Positions 1,473-13,601 of a stretch of 64,000 nucleotides of DNA are shown here, piece by piece. The position numbers were made by a program, and so were the translations under genes. The notes under the pieces are model-generated. The model was given only the letters and a program-made list of their open reading frames with translations. It was not told the DNA's origin and made no database searches. The DNA lies in assembly GCA_963851265.1 (NCBI GenBank), contig CAWKNZ010000007.1, positions 416,001 through 480,000 on the forward strand, in the 5' to 3' direction. Each line of letters starts with the position of its first letter. Position 1 is the first letter of the stretch. This DNA is from an uncultured Gemmatimonadales bacterium. GTDB taxonomy: Bacteria; Gemmatimonadota; Gemmatimonadetes; Gemmatimonadales; Gemmatimonadaceae.

Positions 1473-2852
1473 CTACTGCTCCAGCGTGTACAGGTACGCC
1501 GCGATGTCGCGCGCGTCGCCGTCGGTGACGCCGAGGTTGGGCATCGCGTTGCCGGGCGCGACCGACTGCGGCATCACGATCCACTGGACCAGATGCTCGG
1601 GCGTGTTGGCGAGGTAGCCCGCGATGATCGCGCGCTCGCGCCAGCCGGTGAGCGGCGGGCCGACCATCCCGTCGGCGCCGCGGATGCCGGGAATCAGGTG
1701 GCACGATCCGCAGCCGTACGTGCGGATGGCGCGCGCGCCGCGGGCCGGGTCTGCCGCGAGGTGCGCGCCGCCCTGGATGGACGCGAGTTCGCCCGTGCTC
1801 GCCAGATCACCGCCGACCTCGCTCCCCTCGCGGCGGCCCTCGCCCCCGCATGCGCCGAGCAACACGAACACGAGGAGCGCCGCGGCCGTCGCGCCGAACG
1901 CGTGCGCCGACCGGAGCCCGCGCGCCGGCGCGCCACGCGACCGGCGCGCGTCGGCGAGCATCCACCGCGCCGCGAGTGCGAGCGCGGCGCCGACGTAGAC
2001 GAGCCCCGCCGGCACCCACATCACGAGCCCGGCCAGTTGCTGATCGGCGATGAGCGTCGTGTGCCACGCGCGCGCGCCCGCCGCGTGCACGGGGTACCAC
2101 GGCGCGCGCGAGAAGGCGAGCAGCGCGCCCATCGCGCTGCCCAGCAGCCCCATGCTCATCACGTACAGGATGCCGGCCGCCTCGCCGAGCACCCGACGCC
2201 CGGTCGGCTGCGCCACGCGCCACCAGAACAGCCACGCCGTGCCGAGGAAGCTGACGTGCTCCAGCGCGTGCACCGCGTCGTTGCCTAACGCCGCCGAGTA
2301 GAGGACGGGGACGTGCCAGGCGACGAGCGCCACCGCGTGGAGCAGCCACGCCGCGGCCGGGGTGGCGACGGCGTGCGTGACCGCGCGCGCCGCCCGCTGC
2401 GGCGCGCGCCGCGCGTTCCACCACCTGGCCAGCGCGCGCCGGGCGCCCGCCGGCGGCGCCCACGCGAGCGCGAGCGGCAGGTTGGCGAGGGCGAGCAGCG
2501 GGGCGGCGACGAGGATCAGCAACAGGTGCTGGGCCATGTGCGCCGAGAAGAGCGCGTCTGCCACGGCATCGAATGGGGACACGAGCGCGGCGAGCAGGAC
2601 GACGATGGCCGCCGCGAACGCCCGCGCCTGCGCGATGCGGACCCCGCGCCCGCGACCCGCCCGCGCCCAGATCCGGCGCACGCCGAGCGCGTACGCCGCG
2701 GCGAGCAGGAGCGACGCGACGAGCGGGCCGACGTCGGGCGCCCACCCACCGGCGGCGCCCACCGCGTGCTGGCCCACCGGGTGCGCCCACGCCACCGCGG
2801 GTGTGAGCAGGGCGGCCAGGACGAACCGAACGTGTCGCGCGGTCACCGACAT
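1473..2852 (-). CDS. ctaG: caa3-type cytochrome c oxidase assembly factor (CtaG family) fused to a C-terminal cytochrome c
   Basis: FSAHMAQHLLL, WHVP, HALEH and DQQLAGLVMWVP motifs of caa3_CtaG; C-terminal CGSCH heme motif, GPPL and distal Met (AMP). Confidence 0.85.
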   Translation of the reverse strand: MSVTARHVRFVLAALLTPAVAWAHPVGQHAVGAAGGWAPDVGPLVASLLLAAAYALGVRRIWARAGRGRGVRIAQARAFAAAIVVLLAALVSPFDAVADALFSAHMAQHLLLILVAAPLLALANLPLALAWAPPAGARRALARWWNARRAPQRAARAVTHAVATPAAAWLLHAVALVAWHVPVLYSAALGNDAVHALEHVSFLGTAWLFWWRVAQPTGRRVLGEAAGILYVMSMGLLGSAMGALLAFSRAPWYPVHAAGARAWHTTLIADQQLAGLVMWVPAGLVYVGAALALAARWMLADARRSRGAPARGLRSAHAFGATAAALLVFVLLGACGGEGRREGSEVGGDLASTGELASIQGGAHLAADPARGARAIRTYGCGSCHLIPGIRGADGMVGPPLTGWRERAIIAGYLANTPEHLVQWIVMPQSVAPGNAMPNLGVTDGDARDIAAYLYTLEQ

Positions 2853-3265
2853 CCCTCCACGAACGCGGCGCCCGTCGCCAGTACGATGCCGATGAGGGCG
2901 ATCGCCGCGAGCACGCCGCCGAAGAGGGCGAGGAACGCGGCCCGTTCATTCCGGACCCCAGTGCCGACGATGTCGGCGTGCGGAAAGCGGCGGCGCCCGC
3001 GCGCGAGCGCGACCGTCACGAGCGCCATGAGCACGAGCGCGACGGCCGACGCGGGAAGCGAGATCGCGCGCGGCCCGCCTCCGGCCCGGCACGCGTTGTA
3101 CGACCCGATGTAACTCACCGCCTCGTGGAGCGCCCAGACGATCGGTCCGAGCGCGAACCAGATCCAGAGTCGCCGCAGGGCGCCCGGCGGCGGTGGCGGC
3201 GCCGAGGGCTTCCCGCCCGATGCGGACGGTGCGGGTGCCGAGGAGGACGTTGCGGATGCGGCCAT
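2843..3265 (-). CDS. Small 3-TM membrane protein in the oxidase operon
   Basis: Three hydrophobic segments; lies between coxC and ctaG and overlaps the ctaG start. Confidence 0.65.
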   Translation of the reverse strand: MAASATSSSAPAPSASGGKPSAPPPPPGALRRLWIWFALGPIVWALHEAVSYIGSYNACRAGGGPRAISLPASAVALVLMALVTVALARGRRRFPHADIVGTGVRNERAAFLALFGGVLAAIALIGIVLATGAAFVEGCR

Positions 3266-3275
3266 CAGTCCCTCC

Positions 3276-3899
3276 TCAGAAGCGCGGCGCGAGGTAGAGC
3301 GACGTGAACACGATGAGCCACACCGCGTCGACGAAATGCCAGTACAACACCGTGTTGTTCACCGCGAGCGTGCGCCCGGGCGGAAACGCCCCCGTGATCG
3401 CGCGCAGCAGCGTGTGGCCGAGCGCGAGCAGCCCGGCGAACACGTGCGCGCCGTGGAACCCGGTGATCGTGTAGAACATCGAGCCGTACGCGTCGGTCTG
3501 CGGCCGGAACTCCGCGCGCGACCACTCGAGCCCCTGCACGCCGAGGAACACCGCGCCCATCACGATCGTGAGCGCGAGGCCCGCGATGAGGCCGCCGCGG
3601 TTGCCGCGGTCGGCGCTCCGGTCGGCCCACCACGCCGCGCCGCTGCTCGCGACGAGCAGCGCGGTGTTGGGCGCGACGAGCGCGAGCGGCGGCGCGCCGG
3701 TGGTCGGCCAGGTCGCGTGCTGCACGGCGAGGTAGAAGTAGCTCCCGAGCAGGTAGCTGAACAGCGCGGCCTCGGTCGCGAGCAGCACCATCATCCCCCA
3801 CCAGCCCACGTCGTGCCCGCCGCGCCCGGCGGACACCGGCGGGCGCGCGGGCGCGCCCGCGGCGACGTCGTTAGGCGCCGTCGCGCCGGCCGCGCTCAC
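3276..3899 (-). CDS. ctaE: Cytochrome c oxidase subunit III (short form)
   Basis: LATEAALF, FYTITGFHGAHV and YWHFVDAVW motifs; GTG start at 3899 overlaps the coxA stop (GTGA). Confidence 0.92.
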   Translation of the reverse strand: MSAAGATAPNDVAAGAPARPPVSAGRGGHDVGWWGMMVLLATEAALFSYLLGSYFYLAVQHATWPTTGAPPLALVAPNTALLVASSGAAWWADRSADRGNRGGLIAGLALTIVMGAVFLGVQGLEWSRAEFRPQTDAYGSMFYTITGFHGAHVFAGLLALGHTLLRAITGAFPPGRTLAVNNTVLYWHFVDAVWLIVFTSLYLAPRF

Positions 3900-5899
3900 G
3901 CCGTACCCCCGCCGTAGGCGGGCTCGGCGCCGCCGTCGCCGCTCCGCGGCGGCACGCCCGGCGCGTGGTGCCCGGCCGGCCAGAACCACGCGCCCAGTGC
4001 GAGGACCGTCGCCGCCACCCCGAGCACCGACGGCCAGAAGCCGCGCAGCATGAGCCCCCAGAACAGCAGCGCGAGCGCGGCCGCGAGCGCGAGCGGCCAC
4101 GGCGAGTCGCCGGGCATGTGCATGATCCCCTCGTCACCCGCGTCCATCACCGTCGTGCCGAGCGTCTCGCGGCCCTCGAGCAGCGTCGCCCCGCGCGCGC
4201 CCGAGTCCAGGGCCGCGATCTCGTCGGCGCCCTGCTCCCACAGCGGCTCACGCCCGCGCACGGTCGGGATGCGCGCGAAGTTGTACGCCGGCGGCGGCGA
4301 GCTCACCGACCACTCCAACGTGCTCGCGCCCCACGGGTTGTCGCCGGCCGGCTCGCCGCCGGCCAACGAGCGCACCACGTTCGCGAGGAAGACGAGGAAG
4401 CCGATCGAGAAGATCGCCGCCCCGATCGTCGACCACATGTTCGCGCTGTCGAACCCCATCCCCTGCGCGTACGTGTAGACCCGCCGCGGCATCCCGGCGA
4501 GGCCGAGCTGGTGCATGGGCCAGAAGAGCACGTTCGCCCCGACGAACAGCAGCCCGAACGAGAGCTTGCCGAGCCCCTCGTGCATCATCTTGCCGGTGAA
4601 CTTCGGGAACCAGTAGTGGATGCCCGCGAGCACCGGGAACACGTTCGCGCCGACGAGGACGTAGTGCAGGTGCGCCACCACGAAGTACGTGTCGGTCACC
4701 TGGCGGTCGAAGGCGACGAGGCCCGTCATCACGCCGCTCAGCCCCCCAATCACGAACAGGAGGAGGAACCCGATGCAGTACAGGAAGGGCGTCTTGTAGA
4801 CCGGCTTCCCGAACCAGATCGTGGTCACCCAGGCCACTGTCGTGATGCCGCTCGGCAGCGACACGGTCATGCTCGCCGCCGAAAAGAACGACGTCGACAT
4901 CGCCGACATGCCGGTCACGAACATGTGGTGCGCCCACACGCCGAAGCCGAAGATCGCCACCGCGACGCTCGCCAGCGCGACGAGCGTGTACGCGGCGAGC
5001 GGCCGGCGGCAGAATGTCGGAATGATGGTCGAGACGATACCGAACGCCGGCAGCACGACGACGTACACCCACGGGTGCCCGAACACCCAGAACAGGTGCT
5101 GCCAGAGGAGCGCGCTGCCGCCGCCCTGGGGGTCGAAGAAGTGCATGCCGTAGCGCCGGTCGAGCTCGAGGAAGACGAGCGCGACGGTGAGCGACGGCAA
5201 CGCGAAGACGATCGCCACCGACGCGCTCAGCGTGCTCCACACGTAGATCGGCATCCGGTTGATCGACATTCCCGGCGCCCGCAACTTCGCGATGCTGACG
5301 ATGAAGTTGGCCGCGCCCACCGTCGTCGAGATCGTCAGGAACAGCAGCCCGAGCGCGTAGAAGTCGAGGTTCGGCCCCGGCGAGTACGCGCGCGAGGTGA
5401 GCGGCACGTACGCGAACCAGCCGCCGTCGGGCGCCTGGCCGACGAGGATGCTGCCGTAGAGGAAGCACCCCGCGAACAGGAAGCTCCAATAGCTGAACGC
5501 GTTGAGGCGCGGGAACGCCATGTCGCGCGAGCCGATCAGCAGCGGCACGAGGTAGTTGCTGAAGCCCGACAGCACCGGCGATGCGTAGAGGAAGATCATC
5601 GCCGTGCCGTGCATGCTGAACAGCTGGTTGTACGCCTCGGGCGAGAGGAACCGCGAGTCGGGGCGCGCGAGCTGCACGCGCATGAGCGCCGCGTCCGCGC
5701 CGGCGAGCACGAAGAAGAACGCCGCCGTCCACAGGTAGCGGATCCCGATCGTCTTGTGGTCGACGCTCGTGAGCGCGCCGGCGAGCGTGCGCGGGGTTTC
5801 CCAGATCCACCGCAGCCGTTCGACGGCGGCGCGCGGGTCCGTCGCGCGCGGGTCGGCGGGGGCGACGGGGACGGGCGTGGGTTCGACGCGCGTGGCCAT
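3896..5899 (-). CDS. ctaD: Heme-copper oxidase subunit I (A-family-like, atypical proton-channel residues)
   Basis: DHKTIG, HGTAM, DMAFPRLN, GHPWVY, WAHHM, VAHLHY and GMPRR motifs; ATG at 5899 overlaps the coxB stop (TAATG). Confidence 0.95.
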   Translation of the reverse strand: MATRVEPTPVPVAPADPRATDPRAAVERLRWIWETPRTLAGALTSVDHKTIGIRYLWTAAFFFVLAGADAALMRVQLARPDSRFLSPEAYNQLFSMHGTAMIFLYASPVLSGFSNYLVPLLIGSRDMAFPRLNAFSYWSFLFAGCFLYGSILVGQAPDGGWFAYVPLTSRAYSPGPNLDFYALGLLFLTISTTVGAANFIVSIAKLRAPGMSINRMPIYVWSTLSASVAIVFALPSLTVALVFLELDRRYGMHFFDPQGGGSALLWQHLFWVFGHPWVYVVVLPAFGIVSTIIPTFCRRPLAAYTLVALASVAVAIFGFGVWAHHMFVTGMSAMSTSFFSAASMTVSLPSGITTVAWVTTIWFGKPVYKTPFLYCIGFLLLFVIGGLSGVMTGLVAFDRQVTDTYFVVAHLHYVLVGANVFPVLAGIHYWFPKFTGKMMHEGLGKLSFGLLFVGANVLFWPMHQLGLAGMPRRVYTYAQGMGFDSANMWSTIGAAIFSIGFLVFLANVVRSLAGGEPAGDNPWGASTLEWSVSSPPPAYNFARIPTVRGREPLWEQGADEIAALDSGARGATLLEGRETLGTTVMDAGDEGIMHMPGDSPWPLALAAALALLFWGLMLRGFWPSVLGVAATVLALGAWFWPAGHHAPGVPPRSGDGGAEPAYGGGTA

Positions 5900-6933
5900 T
5901 AGTGCAAGCTCTCGAGGTAGGCGACCACGGCCTGCAGGTCGGCGCCGGACATCGCGACGACGGGCATCCGGTTGCCGGGTTTGATCCGCTGCGGGTCGCC
6001 CACCCAGCCGGCGAGGTCGCCGCGCGTGTTGGGCAGCGTCCCGGCGGCGAGCGTGGCGCGGCTCGCCAGGTGTGTGAGGTCGGGCCCGGCCTGCCCGCCG
6101 AACTCGGTGCCGCGTACCGCGTGACATCCCGCGCAGCCGAGCGACGCGAACGCGACGCGCCCGGCCTGCTCGTCGGGGCGGGTGGCGGGCGCCGCGGGCG
6201 CGTGCTGCGCGGCGAGCCACTCGCCATACTCCACCGGCGTCTGGGCGACGACGGTGAACCCCATGTGCGCGTGCTGCTGCCCGCAGAACTCGCCGCACTC
6301 GCCGTAGTACGTGCCCGCCGTGTCGGCCTCGAGCCAGATCGTGTTCACCTGACCGGCGACGAGGTCGGTCTTGCCGGCGAGCTGCGGCACCCAGAAGGAG
6401 TGATTCACGTCTTGCGTGCTGAGGGCGATGCTGACGCGCCGGCCGACGGGCACGTGCAACTCGTTCGCGGTGACGACGCCGCTCTTCGGATAGCGCACCT
6501 CCCACCACCACTGGTGCCCGACGACCACCGCATCGGCGCGCGCGGCGGCGTCGGGGTCGTTGACGGCGAACGGCTGCGCCTGCGCGTTGGTCTTCACCGT
6601 CGACCAGACGAACACGGCGGCCAGCACGAGCGCCGGCAGCACGAGGCCTAACATCAGGATGCCGCGCACCTCGTCCGGGTGGTCGTGCTGGTCGCGCGCG
6701 GACGCCGCGGCCCCGGCGACCGAGAGGTCGCCGCGCCCGCGGTTGCGCCAGAGGGGCGTCGCGAGAAAGCCGATGAAGATCAGGAAGACGATCGTCGAGA
6801 TCGCGATCAGCGCCCAGCCGAGCGCCGCCGACTCGACGGCCGCGCGCCCGCGGGCCGCGAAGATGGACAGCGTCGTCGGCGTCTGCGTCGGGATGAGCGC
6901 GAGCACCGCCAGCGTGGCACGCAGCGCCGTCAC
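5899..6933 (-). CDS. ctaC: Cytochrome c oxidase subunit II with CuA site and fused cytochrome c (caa3 type)
   Basis: GHQWWW, DVNHSFWVP, CGEFCGQQHAHM (CuA) and C-terminal CAGCH...GPDL...MP; GTG start at 6933 overlaps the upstream stop. Confidence 0.93.
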   Translation of the reverse strand: MTALRATLAVLALIPTQTPTTLSIFAARGRAAVESAALGWALIAISTIVFLIFIGFLATPLWRNRGRGDLSVAGAAASARDQHDHPDEVRGILMLGLVLPALVLAAVFVWSTVKTNAQAQPFAVNDPDAAARADAVVVGHQWWWEVRYPKSGVVTANELHVPVGRRVSIALSTQDVNHSFWVPQLAGKTDLVAGQVNTIWLEADTAGTYYGECGEFCGQQHAHMGFTVVAQTPVEYGEWLAAQHAPAAPATRPDEQAGRVAFASLGCAGCHAVRGTEFGGQAGPDLTHLASRATLAAGTLPNTRGDLAGWVGDPQRIKPGNRMPVVAMSGADLQAVVAYLESLH

Positions 6934-7640
6934 GGGCCGGTGGTGCGCGGGGCGACGACGAGCGAGCCGGTGGCGTGGCGCGCGTGGCCGCCCGGCCACG
7001 GCTCGCCGCGCGTCTGCGCGATGGCCCAGACGTAGGCCGCGACCTCGCGCGTCTCGTCGGCCGTGAGGTCGCCGTAGAGTCCGCGCATCGGCATCGCCAC
7101 CTGCGAGCGGGTGATGTTTTCGGGCACGCCGTTGAGGATGAGAGAGTCGGCACCCGCCCACCCGGCCGCGTTCTCGATCGGCACGTAGATGAGACCGGCC
7201 GTCAGGGAGGACCCGCGCTTGGGAAGACCGGTCGCCTCCATGCCGTGGCACTGAAAGCAGCCGCCCTTCCCGTGGAAGATCGCGTCGCCCGCGACGATGT
7301 CGTCCACGCGCATGCTGTCGGGGAGGGTGGGCAGCGTATCGGGCTGAGACTCCTCGTCGGTCTCCGTGACGCGCGCCAGCGCGAGCGGGGTCGTGCTCGC
7401 GAACACGCTCGCGCCGGTCGACGACGCCGCGCCGGGCGGCGCGACGGCGCCGAGCGTGCGGAGCGCGCCATACGGCTGGTCGCTGCCGCGCGCCGCGTTG
7501 GTCGCATGCAGGAGGTCGGTCGCGAGAAGTCCTCCACCCACGACGATCACGGTCGCGACCGCCCAGACGGCGCGCCGGCTCACGCGTGGCTCCGCCGGCG
7601 GCTCTGCTCGGGGCGAATCGGTTGGCTGCGGTGTTGGCAC
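6930..7640 (-). CDS. Membrane-anchored monoheme cytochrome c
   Basis: N-terminal TM helix; CFQCH; AMPMRG distal Met; paralog of 9498..10235. Confidence 0.85.
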   Translation of the reverse strand: MPTPQPTDSPRAEPPAEPRVSRRAVWAVATVIVVGGGLLATDLLHATNAARGSDQPYGALRTLGAVAPPGAASSTGASVFASTTPLALARVTETDEESQPDTLPTLPDSMRVDDIVAGDAIFHGKGGCFQCHGMEATGLPKRGSSLTAGLIYVPIENAAGWAGADSLILNGVPENITRSQVAMPMRGLYGDLTADETREVAAYVWAIAQTRGEPWPGGHARHATGSLVVAPRTTGP

Positions 7641-7643
7641 GGC

Positions 7644-9482
7644 TCAGTGTTTTCCGCCGCTACTGCCGCCGCTACTCGGCCGCGGGAGCGTGTCGACGGT
7701 GGTGACCGTCGGTGAGGTGGTGCGACCGCGCGCGTCGAGCGTGAACACGACGACCTCGTCCCCGCGCGGCGTGTTGGCGAGCAGGTTCCCGCCCGCGGCC
7801 ACGGCGACGTACTGCACGCCGTCGATCGCGTAGGTCATCGGCGGGGCGTTCACGCCGGCGCGCGCCGTGTACGCCCAGAGCTGCGCGCCGGTGCGCGCGT
7901 CGAGCGCAAGCACCTTCTTGTCGGACGTTCCCGTGAACATCAGACCGCCCGCCGTGGCGAGCGCGCCTCCGACCATCGGCTTCGGCGTCGGCACGAGCCA
8001 CGCGACGCGCCCGGTGTTCACGTCCACCGCGGAGATCGTTCCCGTGGGCTTCGACGTCGACGGGTAGTACCGGCCGCCGACGTACCACGCCCCGGGGTCG
8101 CGCTCCTCGTGCCGGCGCTTGTACAGGAAGGGCTCGCGCAACCCGAGGATGTACACGAGCCCGGTCTGCGGGCTGTACGCCGTGGGCGACCACTGCGAGC
8201 CGCCGAAGGCCCCGATCTGCTGCACCACGCCGCCCTGCAGCGGCGGGGCGGGGAAGGTCGGGCCGATGCCCGTGAACGGATCGGAGCGGCGGATGGGTGC
8301 CCCGGTGCGGCGGTCGACGATGAAGAACCACCCGGCCTTGCCCGCCTCGCCGGCGGCCGGCACCACGCGCCCCGACGCGTCGCGCACGTCGAACAGCACC
8401 ACCGGACTGGCGAGGTCGAGGTCCCACGTGTCGTGCGCGACTTCCTGCGCGCACCACGCGCGCTTGCCGGTGCGGTAGTCGACGGCGATGATGCTGTTGG
8501 CGCACAGGTTGTCGCCCGGCCGCACCGAGCCGTCGACGTCGGGCGACGTGTTGCCGGTCGAGAAGATCGCGTAGTGCAGCACCGTGTCTATGGCCGGGTT
8601 GTTCCAGACCGGCGCGCCGCCGTGCTTCCACGCGTCCGCGTACTTGGCGCTGTCGCGGTGTTCCTGCGCGAGGTCGCGGTGGAAGTCCGCGCCGAACGCG
8701 TCGCTCGCACCGAACTTCCCCCACCAGCCGCCGTCCTCGGGTCCCAACACCGTGTGAAAGCGCCAGAGTTCGTCGCCGCTGCGCGTGTCGAGCGCGACGA
8801 CGAAGCCGCGGATGCCGTACTCGCCGCCGCTCACCCCGAGCATCACCCGGTTCTCGATCACCGTGGGCGCCGCGCTGAAGCTGTAGCCCTGGGTGTTGTC
8901 GGCGACCTTGCGGTCCCACAGCAGGTGCCCCGTCGCCGCGTCCAGCGCCACGATGCGCGCGTCGAGCAGGCCCAGAAACACCCGGCCGCCGTACACGGCG
9001 ACCCCGCGGTTCATCGCCCCGCAGCAGATCACCGTCTTGCCGAGCTCGGGTACCCATTCCCAGCGCTTCGCACCGGTTCGCGCGTCGAGCGCGATCACGT
9101 GGTCGAGCGCGGTCGAGAGGTACATCGTGCCGTCGACCACGACCGGCGTGGCCTCGAACACGTGCGGCACGCCGGTCTTGTAGACCCAGGCGACGCCGAG
9201 GCGGCCGACGTTGGTCGTCGTGACCTGTGTGAGCGGCGACCAGCGCTGGTTGGAGTAGTCGCGCCCGTTGAGCGCCCACGCGCCCGTGTCGGCGAGGGCG
9301 CGGCGGAGGGCGGCGTCGGCCGTGCGCGCGTCGTCGGTGCGCACGGTCACGTGTGCGGCGGCGTCCGGCGTCCCGGCCGCGGCGGCGCGACCGCATCGTG
9401 TGGTCGCGGCGACCGCGGCGAGCGGGAGCAGCGCGGCCGCGCCGCGGCGCAGCGTTAGGCGAATCATACTCGGCGGCATCAT
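7644..9482 (-). CDS. PQQ-dependent dehydrogenase (methanol/ethanol family), copy 1
   Basis: GRDYSNQRWSPL, EATPVVVDG, vicinal ICCG, NRG, GGEYG, TGN, HDTWDLD and repeated W-type beta-propeller motifs. Confidence 0.92.
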   Translation of the reverse strand: MMPPSMIRLTLRRGAAALLPLAAVAATTRCGRAAAAGTPDAAAHVTVRTDDARTADAALRRALADTGAWALNGRDYSNQRWSPLTQVTTTNVGRLGVAWVYKTGVPHVFEATPVVVDGTMYLSTALDHVIALDARTGAKRWEWVPELGKTVICCGAMNRGVAVYGGRVFLGLLDARIVALDAATGHLLWDRKVADNTQGYSFSAAPTVIENRVMLGVSGGEYGIRGFVVALDTRSGDELWRFHTVLGPEDGGWWGKFGASDAFGADFHRDLAQEHRDSAKYADAWKHGGAPVWNNPAIDTVLHYAIFSTGNTSPDVDGSVRPGDNLCANSIIAVDYRTGKRAWCAQEVAHDTWDLDLASPVVLFDVRDASGRVVPAAGEAGKAGWFFIVDRRTGAPIRRSDPFTGIGPTFPAPPLQGGVVQQIGAFGGSQWSPTAYSPQTGLVYILGLREPFLYKRRHEERDPGAWYVGGRYYPSTSKPTGTISAVDVNTGRVAWLVPTPKPMVGGALATAGGLMFTGTSDKKVLALDARTGAQLWAYTARAGVNAPPMTYAIDGVQYVAVAAGGNLLANTPRGDEVVVFTLDARGRTTSPTVTTVDTLPRPSSGGSSGGKH

Positions 9483-9497
9483 CGACTCGGCGTCATC

Positions 9498-10235
9498 TCA
9501 ACGCGCACCCCCCGCCGGGCGTTCGGCGGGCGTGCGACTCGCCTTGAGGCGGTTCGCAGGTTTCGCGTCGGCGCTCACCGTGGCCGGCGCACCGGTGCCG
9601 CGCGTCGGGCGGGCGGGCGGCACGCGCTCCGCGCCGCGCGGAACTGCGGATGCCGTGCCGGTGGCTGCCGCGGGCGTCGGAACGAGCGCGCCGTGCAGCT
9701 CGTGCCCGCCCGGCCAGGGCTCGCCGCGCGTCTGACTGATCGCCCACACGTACGCGGCCACGCGCCGGATCTCGTCCGACGAGAGGTCGCCGCGTGCCCC
9801 GCGCGCGGGCATCCCGATCGGGCTCCGGCTCTGCACGTCGGGCATCCCCGCGCGGATGAGCGAGTCGATCGCGCGCCACTGATACGGCACGTACGCCAGC
9901 CCGGCCGTGATGCCGTCGCCGGCCGCGGGCATCCCCTGCGCCTCGACGCCGTGGCACACGAAGCAGCCGCCCTTGCCGTGGAAGATGGCGTCGCCCGTCG
10001 TGATCTGGTCGAGTGTCATGCCGGGGGGCAGCGGCGCGAGCCGGGCCGGCTGCAGGTCGTCGTTGCGCGGGTTGGGCGAGGTCACGGCCGTATTGCCAGA
10101 GGGCTGCTGCGGGTGGGCCTGACCCTGCTGTGCGCCCGCGGCCGTCGCCGCGACCGCGAGCAGCGCGCAGGCTCGCGCGCCGAGTCGCGCGCCTCGGCGC
10201 GCGAGCCGATCGCGCACGTGCTGCACCACGGTCAT
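9498..10235 (-). CDS. Periplasmic monoheme cytochrome c
   Basis: Start MTVVQHV (ATGA overlap with upstream stop); signal peptide; GDAIFHGKGGCFVCH; paralog of 6930..7640. Confidence 0.85.
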   Translation of the reverse strand: MTVVQHVRDRLARRGARLGARACALLAVAATAAGAQQGQAHPQQPSGNTAVTSPNPRNDDLQPARLAPLPPGMTLDQITTGDAIFHGKGGCFVCHGVEAQGMPAAGDGITAGLAYVPYQWRAIDSLIRAGMPDVQSRSPIGMPARGARGDLSSDEIRRVAAYVWAISQTRGEPWPGGHELHGALVPTPAAATGTASAVPRGAERVPPARPTRGTGAPATVSADAKPANRLKASRTPAERPAGGAR

Positions 10236-12115
10236 GGCTTCCCGCCGAGCACCGGATTCACCGCCGGCTCGCCCGAGCCGCGCGCCGTGTCCTGCATCGC
10301 ACGCGCCGTCGCCGCACGGCCCACCCCACCCTCCGCGCCGGTCGAGGCGCCGGTCCGCGGGCCGCCCGAGGCCCCCGCGCCGTCGAGCGCGAACACGAGC
10401 ACCTCGTCGCCGCGCGCGCTGTTGAGCGGCAGGTTGCCCCCGGCCGCCACCGCCACGTACTGCCGGCCGTTGAGCGCGTACGTCACCGCCGGCGCGTTCA
10501 CCCCCGCGCGCGCGCGGTAACGCCACACCTCGTGCCCGTTGCGCGCGTCGTACGCGACGAACGCCGAATCGGAGAGTCCGGTAAAGACGAGCCCACCCGC
10601 CGTCGCGAGCGCGCCGCTGATCGTCGGTTGCGCGAGCCGCACCTGCCAGGCGATGCGCCCGGTGTTGAGGTCGACGGCCGAGAACGTTCCGTAGTGCCCC
10701 GTCTGCCCAGACGTGACCACGCCGCCCCAGTACTGCGCCGGCGCCTGCAGCTCCTCGTGCTGCCGGCGGTACAGCTGCGGGAAGTAGTTGCCATCCACGT
10801 ACAGGTATCCCGTCTCGGGGCTGTAGGCCGGCGGTGACCAGTCCGACCCGCCGAGCGTGGACGGCGCGATCACGACGCCCGCCTCGGTCGGCACGGTGAA
10901 CATGTTCTCCTGCGGCACGAACGCGTCGGAGCGGCGGATCGGACGTCCGGTGCGGCGGTCGAGCACGTACACCCACCCCGTCTTGCCCGCCTGCGCGACC
11001 GCCGGCACGGCGCGGCCGGTCGAGTCGCGCACGTTCACTAGCACCACCGGCGATGCGGGGTCGTAATCCCACAGGTCGTGCGAGACCTCCTGGTAGTGCC
11101 AGCGGTACTCGCCCGTCTTGAGATCGATGGCGACGATGCAGTCGGTGAACAGGTTGTCGCCGGGCCGCACGCGGCCGTCCACGTCCGGGGCGGCGTTGCC
11201 GATGTTGAGATAGACCAAGCCCAACGCGGTGTCGACGGCCGGGGTGTGCCACATCGGGCCGCCGCCGTGGCGCCACGCGTCGGGGTACGTCGCGCTGTCC
11301 CGGTGCTCCTGCGCGAGGTCGCGGTGGAAGTCGGCGCCCCAGGGATCGCGTGCCCGCCACGCGCCCCACCAGCCGCCGTGCGCGGGATCGGGGATCGTGT
11401 AGAAGCGCCACACCTGCTTTCCGGTGCCCGCGTCGTACGCGGTGACGTAGCAGCGGCCGCCCTGCTCGCCGCACGAGATCCCGGTGATGACCTTGCCGTC
11501 GACCGCGAGCGGCGCGGCGGTGATGTGGTAGCCCTGCTGATTGTCGCCGACCGACACGTCCCACAGCAGGCGACCGCTCGCGGCGTCGAGCGCGACGAGG
11601 CGCGCGTCGACGGTCCCCATGAACACGCGCCCGCCGTAGACCGCCACGCCGCGGTTGATCGGCCCGCAGCAGTCGACGGTCGTCCGGTACGGGTGCACGT
11701 ACTCCCAGCGCTTCGCGCCGGTGGTCGCGTCGAGCGCGACGACGTGGTTGCGCGGCGTGGAGATGTACATCACCCCGTCGACCACGACGGGGCTCGTCTC
11801 GAAGCCGGCGACGATGCCGGTGTGGTAGATCCACGCGGGCGCGAGTCGCGCCACGTTCGCCGTCGTGATCTCGCCGAGTGGCGACCAGCGTTGATTCGAA
11901 TAGTCGCGGCCGTACGACGGCCACGCGGCGCCCGCCGCCATGGCCGACCGAATCGCCGCGTCGGCGTGCCGCGCGTCGACGCCCGCGGACGGCGCCTCAC
12001 GCGCGTCGGCATCCGTCCCGCGACAGCCCGTCCCTGCGGCGACCCCGGCGGCTAGTACTCCCATCACCCCACGACACCTGCCCGCCCGTGCGATCGCACG
12101 GCGTAACCGCCCCAT
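10232..12115 (-). CDS. PQQ-dependent dehydrogenase (methanol/ethanol family), copy 2, probable lipoprotein
   Basis: GGAGGAG SD before ATG 12115; AAGTGC lipobox-like; DCCG, NRG, CGEQG, IGN and HDLWDYD motifs. Confidence 0.92.
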   Translation of the reverse strand: MGRLRRAIARAGRCRGVMGVLAAGVAAGTGCRGTDADAREAPSAGVDARHADAAIRSAMAAGAAWPSYGRDYSNQRWSPLGEITTANVARLAPAWIYHTGIVAGFETSPVVVDGVMYISTPRNHVVALDATTGAKRWEYVHPYRTTVDCCGPINRGVAVYGGRVFMGTVDARLVALDAASGRLLWDVSVGDNQQGYHITAAPLAVDGKVITGISCGEQGGRCYVTAYDAGTGKQVWRFYTIPDPAHGGWWGAWRARDPWGADFHRDLAQEHRDSATYPDAWRHGGGPMWHTPAVDTALGLVYLNIGNAAPDVDGRVRPGDNLFTDCIVAIDLKTGEYRWHYQEVSHDLWDYDPASPVVLVNVRDSTGRAVPAVAQAGKTGWVYVLDRRTGRPIRRSDAFVPQENMFTVPTEAGVVIAPSTLGGSDWSPPAYSPETGYLYVDGNYFPQLYRRQHEELQAPAQYWGGVVTSGQTGHYGTFSAVDLNTGRIAWQVRLAQPTISGALATAGGLVFTGLSDSAFVAYDARNGHEVWRYRARAGVNAPAVTYALNGRQYVAVAAGGNLPLNSARGDEVLVFALDGAGASGGPRTGASTGAEGGVGRAATARAMQDTARGSGEPAVNPVLGGKP

Positions 12116-12233: not shown

Positions 12234-12701
12234 ATGTCCGACTCCACCCGCGCGTGCCCGTTCTGCGACCTGGTCCGCGGCTCGGCCGAGGTCTCGCTCT
12301 GCTACGAGGACGCGACGGCGATCGCGTTCATGGACATCCAGCCGGTGAATCCGGGGCACGTGCTCGTCGTGCCCCGCGAGCACTACGAGTGCATCGACGA
12401 CCTGCCGCGCGAGGTCGGGGAGCATCTGTACGGCGTGGCGACGCGCCTGATCCCGATCATCCAGCAGGTCGCCGGCACCCGCGACATGAACGTGGTCGTC
12501 AACAGCGGCGCCACGGCCGGCCAGGACGTCTTTCACTTCCACGTGCACCTGATCCCGCGGCGTGCGGGCGACGGCTTCGACGTGCCGCTCCCGTTCCCCG
12601 AGTCCGAGATGCCCGACCGTACGCGCCTCGACGCGATGGCGGCCCGCATCATCGCCGCCGTGCGCGATCCGGTGCGTCGCACCGCCGTAACGCCGCCTTA
12701 G
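12234..12701 (+). CDS. HIT family nucleotide hydrolase
   Basis: CPFC, FMDIQPVNPGHVLVVP and AGQDVFHFHVHLIPR (histidine triad). Confidence 0.93.
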   Translation: MSDSTRACPFCDLVRGSAEVSLCYEDATAIAFMDIQPVNPGHVLVVPREHYECIDDLPREVGEHLYGVATRLIPIIQQVAGTRDMNVVVNSGATAGQDVFHFHVHLIPRRAGDGFDVPLPFPESEMPDRTRLDAMAARIIAAVRDPVRRTAVTPP

Positions 12702-12730: not shown

Positions 12731-13040
12731 TTATACGTGATTGTAAGCAAGATCGGTCGTCAGAGGGTGGACGGTCCCTGATCACACCGGCGGAGGCGCG
12801 ATGGCGGCAAGCTGGCATGCGTGCGGCGGCGGAGCGGCGGGACGCGCGGTGCGGCGCGCCGCGGTCCACCCCGCCGCCGTCGCGTCACCGCCGGTTGCCG
12901 CACCACCGCCCGTCGCCGTCCTGACCCCGGTACCGCCGCCAGGCGCAGCAGCCGCCGCCACATCCACCAGCCGACACCCCGCTTCCGGGCTTCTCCCGGG
13001 GGCGGGGTGTCGCCGTTTCGTGCGAGGATCGAGAGCCCCG

Positions 13041-13601
13041 ATGCCCCGTCCGCTCGCCCGTTCGTCCACCCGCAACGCCGCCGCCACGCGCAGCGCCCTC
13101 CGCGCCGCCGCCCTCACCGTCCTGAACGGCGGCGCCGCCCGACCCTGCACCGGGCGCCGCACGCCCGACCGCGGCGCCCGCTCCCGCGACCGCGCCCCCG
13201 CGAGCCGGCCGCGCGACTATGCGCTGCTCGCGGTCGGCGCGAAGCGCGCGATGCGCGCCGCCACGCTCCGCGACTGTGGCCGTCGCTGCGTCTACTGCGC
13301 CGCCGCCCTCTCCTTCGACACGGTCACGCTCGACCACGTGTACCCGCGCGCTCACGGCGGTCCCAACATCGCCGGCAACGTCGTGGCGGCATGCGGTCCG
13401 TGCAACCGCCTGAAGGCCGACCTCCTCCCGAGCGAGTTCTTCCTCCGCCACCCCTGGGCGGGCCTCAACTTCATGCGCTACGCGCGCACGGTGCACCGCG
13501 CACTCAAGCGCGGCGCGCGCCGCGCCGTGAGCCTCGCCTACGCGGGCGAGGCCGAGCTCGACCGGGCGGGGCGGGTGCCCGAGCGGCTGCGCGCCGCGTA
13601 G
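13041..13601 (+). CDS. HNH endonuclease (McrA-like zinc-binding); alternative start at 12801
   Basis: CVYC...TLDHVYPRAHGG...NVVAACGPCNRLK. In-frame ATG at 12801 has a GGAGG SD, so the start is uncertain. Confidence 0.8.
   Translation: MPRPLARSSTRNAAATRSALRAAALTVLNGGAARPCTGRRTPDRGARSRDRAPASRPRDYALLAVGAKRAMRAATLRDCGRRCVYCAAALSFDTVTLDHVYPRAHGGPNIAGNVVAACGPCNRLKADLLPSEFFLRHPWAGLNFMRYARTVHRALKRGARRAVSLAYAGEAELDRAGRVPERLRAA

Follow-up and report, generated by a model that had tools for sequence, protein, structure and literature searches.

A subunit I without the channel glutamate and lysine

The 64,000-nucleotide stretch analyzed here (the window; positions 416,001 to 480,000 of contig CAWKNZ010000007.1, assembly GCA_963851265.1) comes from an uncultured Gemmatimonadales bacterium and carries a gene, coxA/ctaD (3896..5899, minus strand), for subunit I of a heme-copper oxidase with an A-family fold. 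In this 667-aa protein, Trp277 (codon TGG, 5069..5071, minus strand) occupies the D-channel glutamate site (E278 in Paracoccus denitrificans, E286 in Escherichia coli and Rhodobacter sphaeroides), and Thr353 (codon ACG, 4841..4843, minus strand) occupies the K-channel lysine site (K354 and K362, respectively). The textbook account of A-family proton delivery and pumping is built on two residues, E286 and K362. We propose, with about even confidence, that the enzyme is an accessory O2-reducing oxidase that would draw its chemical protons through one Glu-less D-type path, with little or no pumping. A sequence-only reading of this DNA had reported both substitutions; every motif it named was found in place, and the residues were confirmed by alignment.

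Residues were mapped by alignment to E. coli CyoB and, via a Phenylobacterium type-b oxidase, to P. denitrificans 1AR1. On the minus strand, Trp277 lies within a GHPWVY motif (5063-5080) and Thr353 within SLPSGITT, where Ser350 (4850..4852) takes the K-channel threonine site (T351 in P. denitrificans, T359 in E. coli) and Ala356 corresponds to P. denitrificans S357. Residues 273-274 are Phe-Gly, that is, without the Tyr-Ser motif of A2 enzymes. The D-channel entry is kept, with the DMAFPRLN segment (5501..5524, minus strand) contributing Asp126 (D124 in P. denitrificans, D135 in E. coli) and Asn133 (N131), alongside Asn115 (N113), Asn198 (N199), and Tyr55 (Y35). His97, 275, 324, 325, 410, and 412, Tyr279 (Y280), and Arg472/473 are likewise present, in keeping with the earlier claim that all six ligand histidines, the cross-linked tyrosine, and the D-channel entry are retained. 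The same reading had singled out a Thr-Asp pair at the Mg site (Thr402-Asp403, 4691..4696, within QVTDTY at 4685-4702, minus strand; H403/D404 in P. denitrificans). The pair is indeed there, but it is uninformative, since it is common in canonical oxidases: the site was of the Thr-Asp type in 28 of 47 canonical Glu- and Lys-bearing controls and had His in only 8, and Thr-Asp is likewise seen in mycobacterial aa3 structures and in the canonical oxidase of the window genome. It was accordingly rejected as a marker of the variant.

The protein passed the A-family model TIGR02891 (690.6 bits versus a cut-off of 670.75), and its AF2 model (pLDDT 84, pTM 0.88) found its best fold matches among caa3, bo3, and aa3 structures, led by Thermus thermophilus caa3 (2YEV), with a C-terminal extension modeled as two helices (601-617 and 621-638). 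A sequencing error at Trp277, a check named in the earlier reading, is ruled out because 119 of the 120 top scorers, the query among them, share GHPWVY, contig C10 of this genome carries a further GHPWVY paralogue, and the change from GAG or GAA to TGG requires at least two base changes. No RNA run was listed as carrying the stretch, and the shares of all listed runs were small; four runs checked over it yielded only short contigs of relatives, none of them spanning it, so they were uninformative.

Proton channels across the clade

The relatives list comprised the best 120 of 8000 scored candidate proteins, in which the single protein without GHPWVY read GHPDVY. The Lys site held Ala (51), Ser (38), Gln (22), Thr (6), or Gly (3), with Lys in 0 of 120, and the closest named record among the matches listed was a Gemmatirosa metagenome-assembled genome (93%). 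Channel residues were counted in 98 representatives clustered at 80% identity, gaps excluded; this group was defined by Trp or Phe at position 277, so the count at that position is circular. Lys was found at position 353 in none of the 98, the residue varying among Ala, Gln, Ser, Thr, and Gly with Thr in only 12, while position 350 was Ser in 90 and Thr in 8. The D-channel entry persisted, with Asp/Glu126 in 96/96, Asn133 in 95/96, Asn198 in 97/97, Tyr55 in 93/93, and Asn115 in 79/95, and the active-site cross-link Tyr279 (98/98), the ligand histidines, and the Arg pair were conserved. The D entry thus seems to be under selection: in the sister branch without Lys these sites are remodeled, which argues that the residues are not merely structural. 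The conserved clade, the lost K-channel markers, and the Trp support the earlier proposal that this is a divergent subfamily whose proton routing is altered, and the non-pumping behavior suggested along with it is plausible.

The loss extends to subunit II, in which the K-entry Glu before the second transmembrane helix (TM2) was present in 100% of 64 canonical proteins versus 6% of 96 Trp-type proteins, and a second canonical Glu, in TM1 (84% of canonical proteins), is likewise gone in the Trp type. The window's subunit II has a Glu 12 residues before the TM2 Pro (7 in canonical proteins), five residues further upstream; one alignment placed it in the canonical column, but it is shared by only 6% of the group. 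The sequence-only reading had conceded that compensating acidic or basic residues at equivalent positions would undermine it, and our search for such a conserved acid or base in subunits I and II of the Trp group found none; a buried subunit II Glu was rejected as a substitute because it is not conserved there. An engineered Glu at R. sphaeroides I112, equivalent to position 107, reportedly rescues E286A. Position 107 was Ser in 39, Ala in 18, Leu in 16, Gln in 12, and Met in 6 of the 98 representatives, with Glu not among the residues listed, and compensation from this site was therefore also rejected. The A2-type and B-type substitute routes were discarded because their diagnostic residues are not present: the Tyr-Ser motif before the helix VI His is absent from the Trp group (Phe273 in 100%, Gly or Ala at 274), and the B-type K-analogue at positions 286/290/356, which is Tyr/Tyr/Thr in 4/4 B-family controls, reads Met or Thr, Ser, and Ala.

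Polar residues gained in the group comprise Ser111, Ser114, Thr193, Ser/Thr225 and 227, Thr311, Thr314, Thr392, Asn419, and Tyr181, the window protein itself having Ser311 and Val314. Tyr105 and Asn419 co-vary, Tyr occurring with Asn in 79/79 and Phe in all 8 non-Asn cases. We infer the three-dimensional placement of these residues from alignment and helix register only. According to the I280T paper (PMC3706435), the helix VII site that corresponds to Thr314 is close to the active site; the portion of it drawn on here makes no mention of a channel.

In terms of family definitions, the A-family subunit I and CuA subunit II group the enzyme with the A family. The Glu of the A1 signature XGHPEVY is absent, as are Lys354, Thr351, and subunit II Glu78, and the D-entry residues Asp124, Asn113, Asn131, and Asn199 are present. 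Loss of the active-site Tyr, which defines the NO reductases (cNOR, qNOR, eNOR, sNOR, nNOR, bNOR) and marks non-O2 families according to Murali et al. (PMC11214002), is not seen. The different chemistry entertained in the sequence-only reading is thus disfavored, because the cross-link Tyr is kept in 98/98 representatives.

Distribution and order of events

An exact DNA pattern for WxF[GA]HPWVY was found in 21 of the 301 genomes from the window's phylum and in 35 of the 151 in the Paraburkholderia kururiensis family sample (Burkholderiaceae), with no match among the controls. Trp-type proteins were also found in Caulobacterales and Hyphomicrobiales, and on plasmids of cultured Mesorhizobium, Paraburkholderia, Burkholderia sp. 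THE68, Methylocella, and Methylocystis. The dN/dS of the window gene against two congeners was 0.10 and 0.33 (L031 and L337, identical across the compared part, were counted once). A canonical PTG[IV]K oxidase was co-present in 37 of 38 genomes carrying the Trp type, and given this near-universal partner an accessory role is likely.

Two variations within the Trp type were observed. Six Burkholderiaceae proteins (L039, L044, L046, L050, L052, and L113) read AHPWVY, with Ala in place of Gly274, a site we take to be an O2-access constriction; their loci have no PQQ dehydrogenase among the seeds used and carry a multi-heme cytochrome c after the operon. Another subgroup (L047, L048, L150-L152, L160, and L197) has Glu for the D-entry Asp, Phe for Asn115, and Gln107, is without Asn419, and has coxB downstream of coxA.

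The order of the losses was addressed with an IQ-TREE phylogeny of 46 of 179 representatives, from which two trait columns were removed and in which canonical oxidases served as the outgroup; the K-channel-less oxidases of acidophilic iron oxidizers were not among its sequences. All 37 Lys-less sequences fell into one branch (support 100/100). Its first sub-branch (100/97), which includes the window genome's paralogue on contig C9 and the Rhizobium and Azospirillum proteins, keeps the Glu and has a D entry rebuilt with extra Glu residues. In the second (90/95), the D entry is kept and position 277 is Glu, Asp, Leu, Phe, or Trp. The main Trp group makes up one side of a branch, but its support is weak (76/15), and the Trp sequence L200 groups with forms that have Glu or Leu (100/100). 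FastTree had favored one origin for Trp (0.97), but this was left without firm support by the IQ-TREE phylogeny. Because the Lys-less branch is well supported and position 277 varies within it, the Lys loss is the older event, after which the Glu site became changeable and the change from Glu to Trp followed. In a motif scan, five other Gemmatimonadota A-family oxidases (L315-L318 and L330) had Ile, Leu, or Ala in place of Lys; two of these, L315 and L316, do not belong to the main Lys-less branch, so repeated loss of Lys is possible.

Operon and genome context

The subunit I gene belongs to a run of nine minus-strand genes that extends from the gene for PQQ dehydrogenase 2 to the ctaG-cytochrome c fusion, with spacings of -10 to +15 bases. 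Upstream of it lies coxB (5899..6933; start codon inferred from a GTGA overlap), encoding a subunit II with a CuA motif (CGEFCGQQHAHM), intact CuA ligands, and a fused cytochrome c, and lacking the canonical K-entry Glu. Further upstream are a c-type cytochrome that is the probable acceptor for a dehydrogenase (6930..7640), PQQ-type dehydrogenase 1 (7644..9482), a second c-type cytochrome (9498..10235), and PQQ-type dehydrogenase 2 (10232..12115). Both dehydrogenases carry an adjacent Cys pair (CCG) and the lanthanide-type D-x-D, and they are 56-58% identical to each other. Downstream are coxC for a short subunit III (3276..3899), a small membrane protein (2843..3265) without a Pfam or NCBIfam match, similar proteins occurring in 40 of 48 Trp-type loci, and a caa3-type CtaG assembly factor fused to cytochrome c (1473..2852). 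The operon is flanked by a HIT-like protein (12234-12701, minus strand; motif recognized by eye, no Pfam or NCBIfam match) and an HNH-like open reading frame (ORF; 12801-13601, plus strand; motif recognized by eye).

Neighbor counts were based on loci with at least 6 kb on either side and are not an independent-sample test, because the loci include near-duplicates and kin. A PQQ dehydrogenase was present at 27 of 48 Trp loci; the Lys-less Glu-type loci had one in 2 of 11 cases and the canonical loci in 0 of 29. Any of the dehydrogenase seeds used was found at 29 of 48 Trp loci. The suggestion that the variant is tuned to a PQQ module therefore holds in part: the link is frequent, but it is neither obligate nor specific to Trp, because Glu-retaining sister oxidases (C9 and L118) also adjoin PQQ dehydrogenases. 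The lanthanide-type second Asp was present in all 59 of the 73 listed dehydrogenase ORFs that matched the pattern used, and both window enzymes have it. The window dehydrogenases are 30-35% identical to XoxF3-like proteins and about 30-32% identical to Methylocella tundrae XoxF3; assignment to XoxF3 was rejected on this identity, 30-32% versus 67% for the C9 dehydrogenase. Similar paired dehydrogenases recur in other Gemmatimonadota Trp loci.

The window genome has four A-family subunit I genes: a canonical one on C2, Trp-type genes on C7 and C10, and a Glu-retaining Lys-less gene on C9. The C7, C9, and C10 oxidases each lie beside a PQQ dehydrogenase, and ctaA and ctaB homologues are present in the genome. 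The C9 oxidase (~94281-95993) has kept Glu, has Gln for Lys and Asn for the D-entry Asp, and carries extra helix IV Glu residues; an XoxJ homologue lies near its dehydrogenase, the one 67% identical to M. tundrae XoxF3. The second Trp-type operon, on C10 (~169603-171480), encodes a subunit I 57% identical to that of the window and has its own PQQ dehydrogenase, cytochrome c, and CtaG. On a plasmid of Mesorhizobium sp. INR15 (L112, 2208-5532), pqqABCDE lies directly upstream of a dehydrogenase, cytochrome c, and Trp-type cox genes, an arrangement that is a self-contained module.

Expression of an orthologue

Methylocella tundrae T4 encodes a Trp-type protein, ctaD_1 (T4_00360; GHPWVY, PSAIA), that is ~56% identical to the window subunit I. 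In Supplementary Dataset 5 of Awala et al. 2024 (PMC11102522), its transcripts per million (TPM) were 3.1, 87.6, 192.2, and 46.6, those of xoxF3 were 14.6, 140, 728, and 122, and those of the canonical ctaD were 742, 625, 126, and 732. The order of these four columns (methanol+O2, methanol+N2O, methane+O2, methane+O2+N2O) was deduced from published log2 fold changes, the published +4.82 and -2.21 being matched by computed ratios of +4.81 and -2.05. The transcript co-varied with xoxF3/J3/G3, and the authors report a 17- to 60-fold rise of the operon in anoxic methanol+N2O cells (PMC11102522). These data show regulated transcription, not activity, of an orthologue of the window gene together with its dehydrogenase.

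Comparison with known oxidases

Relative to A1 aa3 and caa3 enzymes (1AR1, 1M56, 7RH5/6ADQ, 2YEV) and E. coli bo3, the fold is alike (TM 0.7-0.8), and the six His, the Tyr, the Arg pair, the D-channel entry, and a CuA subunit II are held in common. The differences are Trp for Glu278, Thr/Ala/Gln/Ser/Gly for Lys354, Ser for Thr351, loss of the subunit II entry Glu, and extra conserved Ser/Thr/Asn sites. COX operon type a-II was defined by operon layout (Degli Esposti et al. 2014, PMC4013037), the word "channel" occurring 0 times in the main text and supplement. Like a-II, the window operon has a subunit I within the 630-670 aa range with a two-helix C-terminal extension, a subunit II-cytochrome c fusion, and the PQQ dehydrogenase neighbors described there as frequent (PMC4013037). 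Proteins of Rhizobium and Azospirillum, used as same-genus stand-ins for the listed a-II accessions, retain Glu, with Gln for Lys, Asn for the D-entry Asp, and extra Glu residues, and belong to the sister branch. The a-II list also includes a 650-aa Methylocella silvestris protein, equal in length to the Trp-type M. tundrae protein (PMC4013037), and the follow-up study of 2019 assigns a-II to A1 (PMC6431628).

XoxF3-cox clusters have been reported in Gemmatimonadetes and Acidobacteria (Voutsinos et al. 2024, PMC10875860), and the window operon resembles them in combining a PQQ dehydrogenase, cytochrome c, CoxII/I/III, a small hypothetical protein, and CtaG, although its two dehydrogenases are only distantly similar to XoxF3. 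The XoxF3-cox cluster of M. tundrae T4 (T4_00353-61, PMC11102522) has a Trp-type subunit I; it is labeled "A2-caa3-type" in the Awala dataset, yet it has Phe-Gly, not Tyr-Ser. The channel residues are not discussed in the portions of PMC10875860 and PMC11102522 used here. The A-family oxidases of acidophilic iron oxidizers are described as lacking K354 and subunit II E78 with the D-channel kept (bioRxiv 10.1101/2020.03.01.968255); the window enzyme shares both losses, but those oxidases are classed as A2 and have Ile-type substitutions, with no Trp at the Glu site mentioned in the portion of the source used. B-family ba3 (T. thermophilus 1EHK/1XME) is like the window protein in having no Glu at the site and in Ser350 and Thr353, and unlike it in that the window enzyme is A-family in sequence, keeps the D entry, and is without two helix VI Tyr residues and the second helix VIII Thr. 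The operon layout is thus already published (a-II; XoxF3-cox), whereas neither a description of the Trp-for-Glu variant nor an activity assay of a member was found in the literature searched, in which subscription journals were poorly covered.

Proposed mechanism and alternatives

Taken together, these features suggest that the gene specifies subunit I of a caa3-type oxidase of the A family, which would have an accessory role and likely reduce O2 to water. Electrons would come from the neighboring periplasmic dehydrogenases and pass from dehydrogenase to cytochrome c, CuA, heme a, and the heme a3-CuB site, forming a short, quinone-independent chain that may still separate charge. Chemical protons would probably be taken up from the cytoplasm along one D-type path that lacks the Glu, and could pass Trp277 along a wire of water and Ser/Thr hydroxyls, with the clade-conserved Ser111, Ser114, and Thr193 as alignment-placed candidates and a small or variable residue at position 107, where canonical enzymes have Met. 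Pumping may be lost because no protonatable gate residue is left. A wider claim, which is possible though we lean against it, is that these enzymes form a large unrecognized class of A-family O2 reductases that would be fast without a gating Glu or K-channel, using only a hydroxyl/water wire, and that would serve soil bacteria as a terminal oxidase dedicated to lanthanide-PQQ and flavin dehydrogenase chains.

Several points weigh against the proposed accessory O2-reducing oxidase. Loss of either the Glu or the Lys cripples turnover in canonical enzymes, as E286 mutants illustrate for the Glu, and the bulky Trp could plug the D-channel instead of passing protons. K362M is an inactive-K-channel variant (PMC10341450). 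Some Trp subgroups erode the D entry (8 representatives, with Asp to Glu and Asn115 to Phe), and 19 of 48 Trp loci are without any dehydrogenase type searched. No match to pqqB/C/D/E was found in the window genome (94% complete) at the threshold used, so PQQ may be scavenged. Finally, the M. tundrae operon rises under anoxic N2O respiration, when there is no O2 to reduce.

An unlikely but substantial alternative is that the enzyme still pumps, at 0.5-1 H+/e-, through a rewired Ser/Thr/Tyr/water gate, as do Glu-less A2 and B-family enzymes. Conservation extends to the D entry, the Arg pair, Asp398, and Trp161; conserved hydroxyls have been gained on helix VII at Thr311 (S/T in 96/98) and Thr314 (93/98), together with Thr392 (96/98; Asn in B-family controls), Ser225/227, and Tyr181, and B- and C-family enzymes pump with a single channel (PMC11214002). 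The A2 Tyr-Ser pair and the B-type Tyr/Tyr/Thr are nevertheless missing, and neither subunit I nor II has a conserved buried acid. We regard as improbable an enzyme of low turnover or with another substrate (an O2 scavenger, a peroxide or NO reductase, or a redox sensor) in which both channels are effectively shut. Both textbook gates are gone, the M. tundrae T4 operon is transcribed more under anoxia with N2O, and the Trp type is almost never the sole oxidase of a genome; yet the Tyr is invariant, no Glu/Gln/Asn ligand of the FeB type has appeared, the layout with dehydrogenases fits a sustained electron sink, and the highest TPM falls in the putatively O2-replete methane column (192 versus 126 for canonical ctaD).

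Reduction of O2 with protons from the periplasmic side, a non-electrogenic, cNOR-like electron dump, earns little credence: Trp could block the cytoplasmic route and the periplasmic dehydrogenases release protons on that side, but subunit I shows no new conserved acids there and the cytoplasmic D entry is strongly conserved. Practically none is left for sequencing errors or a decaying paralogue, even though three further subunit I genes of the A family are present in the genome, since the motif recurs across several phyla as well as in nearly all of the best-scoring proteins, dN/dS is below 1, the operon is intact, and an orthologue is transcribed.

Significance

A widespread, conserved variant without either textbook residue, transcribed in one cultured orthologue, offers a natural mutant with which the needs of chemistry could be told apart from those of pumping, and it has culturable members. 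If the enzyme does pump, A-family pumping would require no protonatable internal residue. The enzyme likely serves the neighboring periplasmic alcohol dehydrogenases as an electron sink that pumps weakly or not at all. Such genes are annotated as ordinary pumping aa3 or caa3 oxidases, one being labeled A2 in a published dataset, and this annotation may lead to overestimates of the energy that soil bacteria and methanotrophs gain from lanthanide-dehydrogenase chains.

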